Source: Octopus vulgaris (taxonomy: Eukaryota). From it: a stretch of DNA of 64,000 bases. The notes beneath the pieces were generated by a model. The model had not been told where the DNA came from and did no database searches. It worked only from the letters and a program-made list of their open reading frames with translations. Location of the stretch: contig OX597831.1 in NCBI GenBank assembly GCA_951406725.2, forward strand, positions 12,958,001 through 13,022,000, given 5' to 3'. Within the stretch, counting starts at the first letter, position 1. The number at the start of each line of letters is the position of its first letter. The position numbers were made by a program, and so were the translations under genes. This document shows positions 26,217-63,250 of the stretch, piece by piece.

Positions 26217-27575
26217 TTAATCACCAACAGAGTAACCATTCTTTTCAATGACATCTTCCCATCTTTCCGTAAGCTTTTTGATACACTTTTCATAAAATTC
26301 ATTTGCTTTGATTAAAAAAAGAAAGAAAGAAGAAACTAGCTTCATTTTAAGCTCTTGTCTTGAAGTAAGCCAAAGTCCTGCAAAATGATTCTGTAAGCTT
26401 CCAAAAAGATGGTAATCTGTTAGAGCAAGGTCAAGAGTATATGGTGGGTGAAGCATAATTTCCCAGCCAAATTCTTCTGGGAGATTCTTAGTCACTCTTG
26501 CATTGCGGTGTCTGGCATTATCGTGCTGCGGGATCACTCCTGTTCTAATTGTCAGCGAGAGCCGTTTTCCATGCAAAACTGTTTTTAAACGTCTTAGCTG
26601 CAAGCAGTAAATTTCAGCTGTTATTCTTTGATTGTCCCCTAACAGTTCATTATAACAATTCCCCTCAAGTCCCTCCATACACCCAAAAGAATCTTCTTTG
26701 GATGCAGACCACTTCGAGGCAGTTGGATAGGCTTTGAATTACGGTCGAGTCACTGTCTTTTGCGCTTAACATTATTGTAGAGAATCCATTTCTCATCTCC
26801 AGTAATGATTCTGTCTAAAAAAAGGTGTTTGAAGTTCGCGAGAATGCAATGAGAGACAGCAGTCCACACGTTGTTTGCAATTGTTTTCTGACAAATCATG
26901 TGGAACCCATCTTCCAGCCTTGGAGACTTTACTAAGCCTTATTATTTCAAGATTGATGGTAATATGGCTCAAATTAAACTCCTTGCTCAGTTCCTTAGTT
27001 GTAATGGATGCATTTTCAACAACAGCAGCTTGCGGAGGCGCAATAGTCCAGTGGTTAGGGCAGCGGACTCGCGGTCGGAGGATCGTGGTTTCGATTCCCA
27101 GACCGGGCGTTGTGTGTGTTTATTGAGCGAAAACACCTAAAGCTCCACGATGCTACGACAGGGGTTGGTGGCGACCCCTGTTGTATTCTTTCGCTCCAAA
27201 TTTCTCTCACTCTTTCTTCCTGTTTCTTGTCCCCGACTTCCTACGCAACCGCTGAGCTTGGATGCGAATAGCAAAGGACCACGTTTCGGACTTCTCTCAC
27301 TACAGAAGACCGCTTCGCTCAACATCACCATCATCAACATCAACAGTAGCTTGCAATTCTTTGGGGCGTCCTTTTCTTGCTTCGTCTTTTAGATCGAAGT
27401 CATCCCTTTTGAATCTTAAAACCCGTCTTCTGCATCTCCTTTCATTCACCACATCATTTCCATAAGTGTTTTTGTGTGATCTTACTGCTGGACTTGCTGT
27501 GTTGCCCCACTTCTGGAATTCAAGCAGTAAAACATTCTGTATCTGTTCTTTACTTGGAGTTTTCATTTCGGTCAT
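26217..27575 (-). pseudogene. Mariner transposase pseudogene (frameshifted, SINE-interrupted)
   Basis: HTH region RFKRDDFDLKDEARKGRP, WVPH, ITGDEKWILYNN, HDNAR, HPPYTLDLALTDYHLF, IKKLTERWEDVIEKNGY. Confidence 0.9.
27033..27322 (+). mobile_element. SINE family C variant nested in mariner
   Basis: Matches 3730-4087; flanking duplication CAACAG(C/T)AGCTTGC. Confidence 0.85.
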
Positions 27576-29194: not shown

Positions 29195-29241
<47 letters not shown>

Positions 29242-29244
<3 letters not shown>

Positions 29245-29490
29245 TGGTGCATAATTATAGCGGCTTTTCTTCAACAAATTTTATTCAACAAAAAGAATAA
29301 CAACATGTAACAAAAACATCTTTAAATGATTATTCGGAACATATTCACCATCTACTTCAATTACTGCCCCCTATTTGCTTGGCAGACGGTCAGACTGTCA
29401 TTGAAAGATGTTTTTGTTAAATATTGTTATTGTTTTGTAGAATGAAATTATTTGAAAAAAAAAAAAACCCGCAATAATTATGCACCAATC

Positions 29491-29493
<3 letters not shown>
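29242..29493 (-). mobile_element. Mariner-derived MITE in (TA)n
   Basis: TIRs GGTTGGTGCATAATTAT / ATAATTATGCACCAATCC with long subterminal symmetry; internal VIEVDGEYV-like remnant. Confidence 0.75.
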
Positions 29494-29530
<37 letters not shown>

Positions 29531-29534
<4 letters not shown>

Positions 29535-30198
29535 ATTCTCTAAATGAGATATAGACAGTAACTGCTCCATAACATAAGGGACTAAAGCCATCTGAATATG
29601 GCTAGGGACAGGGCAGGGTGGTGGGGGTGTTACTGTTGCATTTACAGGCGAACATCGACGTCGCCAGATAGGCTTGACACCATCACGGTGTCCTTTAACC
29701 TGCAAAGGGAGATAATTCCCCGATGAAGCGGAAACCACACATGGTTTCAAGGTGTATTGCCTATCATCAACGTGTGGTAGGCCCCCGCTTCCTCGACGAA
29801 ATCTCACTCTGCAGGATATTCATATATAGATTTTCAAGCAAAATACATTTGCTGATTTCGAAAATCTGTTCGACAGCAATAATAATTCTCTAAATGAGAT
29901 ATAGACAGTAACTGTTGCTTGAAAATCTATATATGAATATCCTGCAGAGTGAGATTTCGTCGAGGAAGCGGGGGCCTACCACACGTTGATGATAGGCAAT
30001 ACACCTTGAAACCATGGTCCGTGTGTGGTTTCCGCTTCATCGGGGAATTATCTCCCTTTTGCAGGTTAAAGGACACCGTGATGGTGTCAAGCCTATCTGG
30101 CGACGTCGATGTTCGCCTGGGCTAAATGCAACAGTAACACCCCCACCACCCTGCCCTGTCCCTAGCCATATTCAGATGGCTTTAGTCCCTTATGTTAT
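29531..30198. mobile_element. Fold-back retrozyme-like element in (TA)n: about 275-bp inverted arms plus 34-bp direct repeat at 350-bp period
   Basis: Arms 29569-29841 and 29915-30198; direct repeat 29531-29564 = 29881-29914. Confidence 0.85.
29965..30038 (+). ncRNA. Type I hammerhead ribozyme (C3U variant)
   Basis: CACACG-TTGATGA-tAGG caataca CCTt-GAAA-CCATGG-TC-CGTGTG; distal stem I GAAGCGGGGG/TTTCCGCTTC; predicted GUC cleavage after 30019. Confidence 0.7.
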
Positions 30199-30244
30199 AT
30201 ATATATATATTTGAGAAAAAAGGTTGTCAGAATTTTGGAAAAAA

Positions 30245-31990
30245 TATCTTTTTATTTCTTTATATGATTCACGTATCCTGTTCTTGACAACAGAACACGA
30301 TCACACATAACACATGTCCAATATTCACTGTTAATTAAAGTTCTAATTGTTCCTTTGAGACAGGCCCTTTGAAGCTCTGAGTGCTGTATCATCTTTCCTT
30401 CCCAGGCACTGCAACCAGTCCTCTCCAAACAGTACCTCTCCACTTGTTCCAATCTTGAACACCATTTTCCTAATCTTTCTTGTTCATATCTAGTTTCTTC
30501 AGCTTTTCCTTCACACAGTCTTTATACCCTTTCCTTGGCTTATGTTGTGGTCGTTTACCAGACTTGAGCTCACCATAAAAAAAGGACGCTTTGGCAATCG
30601 CTCGTCTTTCATTTAAAACATGTCCAGTTCATCTCATTTGAGCCAAGATAGCATGTTGTTCAATTGAGCTACAACCTTCCATGCGCAAAACTCCTGTATC
30701 TGGTATGAAGCACTTTTGATGAAATCTCTCCAGCATTTTATATGATGCTTGTAAGGGGTCGACATCTCACTTAAATAAAGTAGTGCAGACAATACACACG
30801 CTTTATAGACACTGATTTCTGTCTGCAGGGAAATGCCTCTATCCGCCCACACTCACTTTTCCAGCTTTCCAAATGCATTATTTCCCTTCCCTATTCGATA
30901 ATATATCTCTGCATTAAGACCACCATCTCTTGACAGTGTGCTTCCATGGTAAACAAAGGTCAACGACTTTTAACATTGTTCCATTCACAAAAATGTTTGG
31001 TTCAGAATAAGTTTTGTCCTGGTGAGGGAGTAAACATTATTTTGGTTTTAGCCCAGACAGACTAATTGTGAGTCCGAAATGTACACATGCAGTGGAAAAT
31101 CTGCCCATTAAATGTTGCACATCCCCCTCTGAATGTGTCAACAAATCAGCATCATCAACATAAAGTAATTCTCTTACAAGTGATTTGAAAGTTTTTGCTT
31201 TGCAGTAAAACCGGGTCGAATTAAAAATGCGACCAGATGTCCGAAATCTGATTCCGATTCCCCTGTTGCACTCCTTGAAACCATACCAAAGCAATGCAGC
31301 AAAATAGAGAAAAGTGTAGGGGCAGGAATATCTCCCTATTTGACATCGTTATCCACCGAAAATTCATGAGATAATTCACTATTAAAGACTACCTGAGCTT
31401 TCATGTTTCTGTGTAGTTCCTTAAAGATGCTCACAAAATGAATTGGGCAACCAAGTTTACACAAAACAATCCACAGTGCCTCCCTGTTAATTTAACAATA
31501 CTTTAGTTAAATCTATGAAGACCTGGTGTAGTGGCATTTGTTCCTCTAAGCATTTCTCTTGAACCTGCCTCACAGAAAATATCATGTCCGTTGTTCCTCG
31601 CTCAGGTCTGAAACCACACCGTTCTTCAGGAATCATATGTGGACACACATTCTCAATGAGACGATCTAACATGATCCTTCAAAGTATCTTCCCGGTTTGT
31701 ACCAGGAGTGTTATCCCTCTAGAATTACCACACATTGCTTTTGGGCCCTTATCCTTGTATACAGAAATTAAAATGCCATTTATCCATTCTTGTGACACAG
31801 AAGATTCATTCAAAACTCGAGTTATCAGGCTATGACTATCAGATGAAATATGATCCCCACATTCTATCAGAATTTCAACTGGAATACCTTCCAATCCAGG
31901 TGCTTTACCTGATCTCAGTTTACATAATGCCAAATTTTCTTATTCAATGGAAAGTGTATCATTGATGCGTTGCACTATCTCGCTTTGTAG
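30245..31990 (-). pseudogene. RTE-clade (BovB-like) LINE reverse transcriptase, decayed
   Basis: [55 protein letters not shown]-terminal CxxC...H finger; many stops and frameshifts. Confidence 0.9.
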
Positions 31991-39361: not shown

Positions 39362-39368
39362 AATATAT

Positions 39369-39778
39369 ACTCTTTTACTCTTTTACTTGTTTCAGTCTTT
39401 TGACTGCGGCCATGCTGGAGCACCGCCTTTAGTCGAGCAAATCGACCCCGGGACTTATTCTTTGTAAGCCCAGTACTTATTCTATCAGTCTCTTCTGCCG
39501 AACCGCTAAGTGACGGGGACGTAAACATACCAGCATCGGTTGTCAAGCAATGCTAGGGGGACAAACACAGACACACAAACACACACACACACATACATAT
39601 ATACACATATATACGACAGGCTTCTTTCAGTTTCCGTCTACCAAATCCACTCACAAGGCATTGGTCGGCCCGGGGCTATAGCAGAAGACACTTGCCCAAG
39701 ATTCCACGCAGTGGGACTGAACCCGGAACCATGTGGTTGTTTAGCAAGCTACTTACCACACAGCCACTCCTGCGCCTA
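39369..39778 (-). mobile_element. SINE family B, young full-length
   Basis: Near-perfect reverse complement of 38223-38643; an older copy follows at 39800-40162. Confidence 0.9.
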
Positions 39779-40404
39779 TATATATTCTTCTATTTCTATT
39801 TGTTTCCGTCATTTGACTATGTCCATGCTAGTGCATTGCTTTTGGTCGAGCAAATCGACCCCCAGGACTTATTCTTTGTAAGCCTAGTACTTATTCTATC
39901 ACTCTCTTTTGCCGAACCGCTAAACACAACCAGTATCGGTGGTCAAGCGATGGTGGAGGAAGAAACGCAAACACACACACAAACACACATACATACATAA
40001 TATACACACACACATATATACGACGGGCTTCTTTTAGTTTCCGTTAACCAAGTTCACTCACAAGGCTTTGGTCGGCCCGAGGTTATAGAAGACATTTGCC
40101 TAAGGTGTCACGCAGTGAGACTGAACCCGGAACCATGTGGCTGGGAAGCAAGCTACTTACCACACAGCCACTCCTGTGCCTATGAGACAAAGGCGACTGA
40201 AGAAGGGGAATTTTCCTTGTGTTATTTGTCCTGTACTCTATTTTTTCGTTGTTTAAGAAAAACGTCTATTTCCTTGGTTTTGTGTTTATGTTTTCGTTTC
40301 TCATTGTGTTCGACGTTTTTTTGGTGTCCTGTACTCATATATGCATGTATATATACATGTAGAGGTAGGTACGTACATATATGTTTTATTTATTTATTAA
40401 TTTA

Positions 40405-62509: not shown

Positions 62510-62911
62510 CTATGTGTGTAGTTCCTGTGATCTAAGTGTTGTTTTAGTTCGATGCGTTGATAATACTTTGACCTCTATGCTATTGACTGAGCCTCTACGT
62601 TCTGCTTGAGCATGTTGATAGAGCACTGACGAACCTTTCTCTTCTTTGAGCTCTCGCCAGTCTTCACCTATGCGTTCTCTTATGTTGCGCGCTGTCTCGC
62701 CAAGGTGAGCAATTGTTATGCTTCTGCACCGTCCCTCAGTACATCGTAAGTTATACACTATATTCCTAACCATACAGTTAACCTGTGGCTTTATCCTACA
62801 TACAATACAATTATTCTCCGTACACAGGGACCCATCGAAGGGATAAGTTCTACAAATCAGGGATTTTATAGTGACACCAGGCCTTTCTACCACTTTAATA
62901 CGTAGATTGGC

Positions 62912-62912: not shown

Positions 62913-62948
<36 letters not shown>

Positions 62949-62954
<6 letters not shown>

Positions 62955-63250
62955 GAAATGAGGTACTCAGAAGATCGGATGGTTTATATTTACAGATATT
63001 TATTTGTATATTACATTTTTTATATATATCATATCACTTAGATCATTAGCGCTTTCTGCCATTCTAGTGGGGTTTTCAAATCAAATGAAAACCCCACTAG
63101 AATGGCAGAAAGCGCTAATGATCTAAGTGATATGATATATATAAAAAATGTAATATACAAATAAATATCTGTAAATATAAACCATCCGATCTTCTGAGTA
63201 CCTCATTTCTTCTAATATATAATACCTGTACATCATCTCCAAACCTTCCA
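62949..63250. mobile_element. Fold-back element in (TA)n: 130-bp apparently perfect arms plus one-sided tail, HHR-like centre
   Basis: Arms 62949-63078 and 63086-63215; tail to about 63250; GAAA-GCGC-TA at 63108-63117. Confidence 0.85.

Follow-up and report, generated by a model that had tools for sequence, protein, structure and literature searches.

A 668-bp non-coding insert within a TA microsatellite of the Octopus vulgaris genome (29531-30198) is composed of two head-to-head copies of a many-copy repeat of 350-360 nt. The repeat is likely a further animal non-LTR retrozyme, a class that is already known. We lean toward the view that it was copied into this site by the enzymes of a Penelope-like element (PLE), probably priming both target strands on one head-to-tail RNA. 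The window analyzed in this study is the whole 64,000-nt stretch that contains the insert (assembly GCA_951406725.2, contig OX597831.1, positions 12,958,001 to 13,022,000 of the forward strand), and all coordinates refer to it.

In the literature consulted, the enzymes that move animal retrozymes and the role of the circle as template are still matters of hypothesis. A retrozyme with the full Penelope insertion signature would provide structural evidence for PLE mobilization that is independent of sequence homology. In addition, a 4-nt register between the arms of the insert makes the choice between circle and tandem RNA, and between one and two molecules, testable by a survey of copies. As the element class is known and common, and the data come from one locus, the gain is moderate.

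Organization of the insert

Copy 1 (29531-29914, minus strand) is 384 nt long, i.e., a 350-nt monomer plus a 34-nt overlap, and its 3' end lies at the left (TA)n tract (29495-29531). The overlap is part of an exact 36-nt direct repeat on the minus strand, in which 29529-29564 equals 29879-29914 (the 5' end of copy 1) at a spacing of 350. Two of these 36 nt belong to the left TA tract; thus, a preliminary description of this locus was correct in reporting a 34-bp block that recurs exactly 350 bp apart (29531 and 29881), and in viewing the minus-strand copy as one full monomer plus a short overlap. The longest direct repeat within 29532-29914 is 33 nt, whereas the maximum in 1000 dinucleotide shuffles was 13 nt.

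Copy 2 (29915-30198, plus strand) is the inverted partial copy that the same description had placed after copy 1. It is 5'-truncated, has 284 nt (monomer positions 29841 to 29569), and its 3' end lies at the right (TA)n tract (30196-30210). When aligned with copy 1, 273 of 284 positions match; the remaining 11 are gap columns (7, 1, and 3 nt), and there are no substitutions. The two copies are arranged head to head, and both 3' ends adjoin (TA)n tracts, each sharing 3 bases with its tract. These tracts are the halves of the target that would have primed copy 1 (left) and copy 2 (right).

In the monomer, the 3' ends of the two copies fall at two sites located 38 nt apart, designated A (29531) and B (29569). 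Copy 1 alone, therefore, has a 38-nt 3' extension (29531-29568, minus strand), which may be compared with the tail in Figure 2 of Craig 2021. A 4-nt spacer (29565-29568, minus strand) lies between the 3' end of copy 2 and the 5' end of copy 1 in monomer coordinates. The junction between the copies (29914/29915) is blunt, with neither microhomology nor filler.

The preliminary description missed one feature: a 7-nt segment with the predicted ribozyme cut site is absent from copy 1, such that a hammerhead remnant is present at 29730-29780 (minus strand) with the gap between 29739 and 29740. These 7 nt are carried by the family, as seen in public sequencing runs (below), in two contigs of run X1 and one each of X7 and X17, and in split alignments in X15 and X17. 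Relative to the family, both differences in copy 2 are one-base changes in homopolymers. Because all differences between the copies are indels, two of them in homopolymers, assembly error is possible, and these differences are weak evidence regarding the template.

Long near-perfect inverted repeats may be artefacts, and arms that differ by indels only would suit an assembly chimera or an inversion generated by fold-back copying of the first cDNA. The junction, however, offers no complementarity for priming, copy 2 holds family sequence that is absent from copy 1, the two flanks are unlike (a small inverted-repeat element on the left and a LINE on the right), and the 38-nt offset is that of a PLE tail. 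We find an explanation of this type barely credible.

The monomer has a GC content of 0.446 (44.6%). On the circularized monomer, the longest ATG-started frames are 35 aa (sense) and 56 aa (antisense), which agrees with the earlier remark that the element has no meaningful coding capacity. An ORF with the reverse transcriptase (RT) and GIY-YIG domains of an autonomous PLE was not found within the insert.

A dispersed family with a head-to-tail unit

The stretch was present in 20 of the 24 public runs listed, from six coded organisms and 12 studies, and none of these runs was recorded as RNA, which has no bearing on expression; the other four runs do not prove absence. Four of the 20 were compared with 29532-29914 as assembled contigs: the DNA runs X1 and X7, and the runs X15 and X17, whose RNA status is a guess made by the tool. 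The DNA runs contained 1156 and 553 contigs, short and varied, the depth of which is no measure of copy number; X15 had two contigs and X17 had 13. The repeat is a diverse, many-copy family dispersed in the genome.

Record 9 of X15 (373 nt) covers 29619-29881, steps back 350, and then covers 29532-29644. Its ends overlap by 30 nt, as calculated from the coordinates and a listed 4-nt insertion, which gives a unit of 373-30 = 343 nt, equal to the monomer length summed from the indels of this contig. The contig is a closed cycle in the 31-mer assembly graph, and its cut site is intact. The identical head-to-tail joint was found in X17; thus, the junction search in RNA runs that had been proposed for this locus recovered the joint from both probable RNA runs, in one contig each. 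No contig listed in X1 or X7 contained the joint, but the longest DNA pieces listed are 60-104 nt and could barely span it, so this absence carries little weight. An exact 30-nt pattern had no matches in metagenome contigs and none in viral contigs.

Since the joint is seen in both X15 and X17, the overlap belongs to the element, whose unit is either circular or tandem, and this supports the earlier proposal of a retrozyme-type element with a circular or tandem unit of about 350-360 nt. The preliminary description had named target-site duplication of the 34-bp repeat as one of the outcomes that would undo its own reading; this reading of the overlap was rejected, as the joint recurs in two runs and unique sequence lies on both flanks. 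A cyclic contig looks alike for a circle and for a tandem array, and a circular template is thus unproven.

These data also bear on the idea that the two pieces are truncated pseudo-LTR (pLTR) ends of an autonomous PLE and that there is no independent retrozyme. The insertion signature and the type I hammerhead are indeed found together in PLE termini as described by Craig 2021 and Arkhipova 2013, and retrozymes and pLTRs are related according to the 2026 preprint of Li and colleagues. Beyond the tail, however, the sequence re-enters the monomer and not an ORF, in the window and likewise in two independent runs; no frame exceeds 56 aa; and the 343-nt cyclic contig weakens the idea further. We consider it highly improbable.

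In X7, summed depth is maximal in an AC/C-rich segment (29586-29640) located upstream of the priming sites, and 16 contigs of this run pass into a diverged tail at 29586. These tails suggest a sister family with a common cis-element.

Predicted hammerhead ribozyme

A type I hammerhead descriptor had a single match in the whole window, on the plus strand of copy 2 (29980-30025), with a predicted cut at 30019/30020. All parts of the motif are on this strand: a 6-bp stem I (29980-29985/30020-30025), the core in its U3 variant (29986-29992), stem II (29993-30007), and GAAA (30008-30011) followed by a 2-bp stem III with a palindromic tetraloop. The descriptor also matched one of 2000 shuffles of copy 2 and eight of 40 shuffled whole windows. 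A match to this loose descriptor alone is, therefore, not significant window-wide, and its context matters: stem I runs into a long imperfect rod (29941-30067, plus strand), and the predicted fold places the hammerhead at the tip of this rod. The monomer, copy 2, and the 65-nt core alone had folding z-scores of -5.1, -2.8, and -0.5, respectively; the stability of the core alone is unremarkable.

The preliminary description considered this hammerhead well formed, with an extended stem I. The type I motif and the extension of stem I by the rod stand, but "well formed" does not. The core is off-consensus, with U3 opposite G8; a U-U mismatch opens stem II, stem III has only two pairs, and an Rfam search of the window yielded no matches at the gathering threshold and no hammerhead family among 12 matches up to E 10. 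Relative to the predicted minimum, the catalytic fold costs an extra 6.4 kcal/mol. Rfam matches to miRNA families at 29766-29990 were set aside, as they reflect the inverted repeat only. Despite a core-like string, the descriptor scan detected no type I or type III hammerhead on the antisense strand of either copy; for these two types, ribozymes in both polarities, which characterize ambisense viroid-like RNAs, are absent.

The core varies within the family. In X1, two bases (29769/29770) are changed in most of the depth, yielding a core with C3 and U4C, and the window's allele (U3 with G8) is in the majority in X7 and X15. Each of the two natural cores is thus one base off consensus. C3-G8 is reported to covary to U3-A8, and U4C to be far slower in vitro while remaining viable in a viroid (Perreault 2011, PMC3088659). 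Judging from these core sequences, both alleles may cleave weakly. We also examined 20 family variants against the fold: nine are in unpaired positions, seven keep a pair, and four break one. After allowing for transitions, seven of eight keep the pair (p = 0.065), and the variants were, therefore, not counted as support for the fold. The core (29986-29992) is also able to form a duplex of -9.8 kcal/mol with a segment in the rod's 3' arm (30036-30044), and both family alleles would keep this pairing, which might serve as an off-switch fold.

Proposed insertion by Penelope-like enzymes

The locus is a partial tandem flanked by (TA)n on both sides; its 5' end carries an inverted 5'-truncated copy, and only one end has a tail. 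In the account of Craig 2021 (PMC8557442), PLEs insert into (TA)n targets as partial tandems, the 5' end of which holds an inverted, 5'-truncated copy, and a tail of 30-40 bp is often restricted to a single end; Arkhipova 2013 (PMC3846280) describes the same layout in a rotifer. The 38-nt tail at 29531-29568 is within this range. Frangieh 2024 (PMC11167929) showed in vitro that both strands of AT-rich DNA are nicked and extended by a PLE protein, that synthesis initiates at two RNA positions, one on either side of the tail, and that the template is mainly uncut RNA. It is very probable, in our opinion, that the insert is a retrozyme mobilized by a PLE.

How many RNA molecules were involved is a separate question. 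The location of the two 3' ends at TA sites, the lack of complementarity at the junction, and the presence of 7 nt in copy 2 only favor two primings on opposite strands. In monomer coordinates, the 5' end of copy 1 (the 29564 equivalent) is 4 nt from the 3' end of copy 2 (the 29569 equivalent), a register that 9-11 of 350 positions would give by chance (~3%, a figure computed post hoc). With this register, copy 2, the 4-nt gap, and copy 1 would follow one another without interruption along a single head-to-tail RNA of ~672 nt (~1.9 monomers). Twin priming is known to generate two inverted fragments with an internal deletion, and dual priming has been proposed as an alternative that gives similar structures (Meyer 2010, PMC2837659). 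If the insert is a PLE-mobilized retrozyme, we judge twin priming on one molecule to be about evenly balanced against its alternatives, with a slight tilt in its favor. Our literature search on twin priming and Penelope, which covered titles and the openings of abstracts, found no account of PLE twin priming.

The proposed sequence of events is read from this single locus. A tandem source locus would be transcribed, and the off-consensus ribozyme core would leave much of the RNA uncut or multimeric. By analogy with PLE biochemistry, the PLE protein would nick both (TA)n strands. Synthesis would then start from the left plus-strand end at site A (the 29531 equivalent) and from the right minus-strand end at site B, which lies 38 nt farther upstream in the monomer, both primers having AU-rich complementarity over 3 nt. 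The second cDNA (284 nt) would have begun at site B of the upstream unit, the first (384 nt) would halt 4 nt before reaching it, and a blunt joint would finally connect the two. The 34-nt redundancy would be the PLE tail read twice.

If the two strands were instead primed on separate linear RNAs, copy 2 would be randomly truncated, and copy 1 would be a full-length cDNA reaching a transcription start near 29914. The first pentamer of copy 1 resembles an invertebrate initiator, and the fixed sites A and B would account for the tail without one shared molecule. This is the dual priming alternative discussed by Meyer 2010. However, without some link between them, a start site and site B would be 4 nt apart by coincidence, and we view dual priming on two RNAs as unlikely.

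The preliminary description favored a circular RNA, slightly more than one round of which was reverse transcribed before an inversion arose. In a model of this type, 1.1 rounds of a monomeric circle would be copied, and the inverted copy would come from another priming event, either on that circle or on a different one. Several observations are compatible with a circle: the closed cyclic 343-nt contig with its cut site intact comes from a probable RNA run, both copies read over the position of the cut site with no substitutions between them, mussel retrozymes of 350-390 nt form abundant circles (PMC7229834), and circles are the templates proposed in the literature. However, tandem arrays would yield an identical cyclic contig, and the PLE tested in vitro uses uncut RNA (Frangieh 2024). 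On one monomeric circle, both enzymes would have to copy the same 273 nt, which would require strand displacement, whereas a linear dimer would not. The three indels between the arms weakly favor a linear template over a circular one. One trip round a circle followed by inversion is not supported as it was formulated, because the 3' ends lie at two TA-abutting sites 38 nt apart, the junction lacks fold-back complementarity, and copy 2 has 7 nt that are missing from copy 1 but present in the family. Twin priming on one RNA accounts for the 4-nt register better than copying around a monomeric circle plus inversion does, and the circle account appears rather unlikely to us.

A more specific version of the twin priming model, in which a pair of PLE proteins primed one tandem retrozyme RNA at two fixed sites, is offered tentatively. 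If correct, the "tail plus inversion" of PLEs would be a single-molecule twin-priming product, and the main mobile form of animal retrozymes would be uncut or multimeric circular RNA, preserved by deliberately weak ribozyme cores. The cephalopod family would then represent thousands of natural tests of the template question.

Candidate partner and neighboring repeats

The window contains a GIY-YIG-like coding fragment (62510-62908, minus strand) that is 5'-truncated at a (TA)n tract (62915-62948). Its Atlas score was 0.95 to a cluster in which 33% of the members have GIY-YIG. The best of its 674 relatives is an Octopus bimaculoides protein (44% identity), and ten relatives that were scanned gave one weak RT and one weak GIY-YIG match, both below the Pfam cut-off. 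The fragment itself had no Pfam match, and a word-based protein search with it was empty. It is probably a Penelope-like remnant, which would suggest that PLEs are present in the host; PLEs are also reported in the Octopus vulgaris repeat annotation (PMC13282606). The best match between the monomer and this fragment (1-kb search) is an AC-rich 21 of 26 nt (E 0.04). As this is all that they have in common, the fragment was not identified as the partner, and no autonomous PLE with the terminal sequence of the element was found in this comparison, which covered the in-window fragment only.

Otherwise, the window is repeat-rich animal DNA with many microsatellites and interspersed repeats, the latter presumably octopus SINEs. 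Directly to the left of the insert, between two (TA)n tracts, is a small element (29241-29494) with ~70-nt terminal inverted arms that are 90% complementary, including TA tracts; its ends resemble those of a mariner-type MITE. To the right (30211-31900, minus strand) is a broken LINE reverse-transcriptase frame with stops and frameshifts, the 3' end of which adjoins the right TA tract, and which we take to be RTE-like. A mariner-type transposase fragment (26217-26738, minus strand) matched Pfam Transposase_1 below the cut-off (E 5e-4), and a word-based protein search with it was empty. Positions 39363-40183 hold a tandem pair of a 404-nt SINE-like unit (81% alike). A long, near-perfect palindrome with arms of ~130 nt, as estimated by eye, is located at 62951-63217, beside the TA tract at 62915-62948.

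Comparison with known systems

No cephalopod retrozyme was found in the literature searched, in which the listed papers linking hammerhead ribozymes with octopus were judged by title or abstract opening, although the supplements of PMC7229834 and of the 2026 preprint, as well as Repbase and Dfam, could hold the family. The main text of the 2026 paper on Octopus vulgaris repeats (PMC13282606) contains the word "ribozyme" zero times.

Metazoan non-LTR retrozymes, as described by Cervera and de la Pena 2020 (PMC7229834), are non-coding, 170-400 nt long (350-390 nt in mussel), and have a GC content below 50%. The octopus element shares with them a non-coding unit of 350/343 nt with 44.6% GC, one type I motif per unit, a head-to-tail unit, and a self-paired fold. 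As in HHR_Amex2 of axolotl (PMC7229834), helix II has a U-U at its base, and helix III consists of 2 bp and a tetraloop. In contrast to metazoan retrozymes, the octopus core is off-consensus in both alleles (U3/G8, and U4C in most of the X1 depth), and the locus is an inverted pair and no plain tandem. Circles and cleavage have been demonstrated for the retrozymes of PMC7229834, whereas the octopus element is known here from its sequence.

The octopus insert resembles endonuclease-containing PLEs (Craig 2021; Arkhipova 2013; Frangieh 2024) in having a hammerhead in the repeat, (TA)n, a tail, and an inverted copy. It differs from PLE insertions in that it has no RT/GIY-YIG ORF and that the entire unit is 350-360 nt. 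Its direct copy ends 4 nt before the start of the inverted copy, whereas the PLEs described have a full upstream pLTR. L1 twin priming (Meyer 2010, PMC2837659) likewise involves inverted fragments of one RNA, an internal second primer, and a small deletion; unlike L1 products, the octopus locus shows neither poly(A) nor a visible target duplication, its priming sites are apparently fixed, and its template would be a tandem.

Mobilization of non-LTR retrozymes by PLEs was already proposed in PMC7229834. In a recent preprint, Li, Clavereau and Pollet 2026 (10.64898/2026.07.22.740005) propose that animal retrozymes are non-autonomous PLE derivatives, on the basis of co-occurrence and pLTR homology in 35 genomes, none of them from a mollusc; cleavage was observed for one of nine predicted Xenopus dimers. 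These authors define active retrozymes by no fewer than two consecutive units whose hammerheads are complete; the octopus locus has inverted copies, with the cut site absent from copy 1. The available text of the preprint contains no analysis of tails or inversions, and the octopus locus supplies such an insertion footprint.
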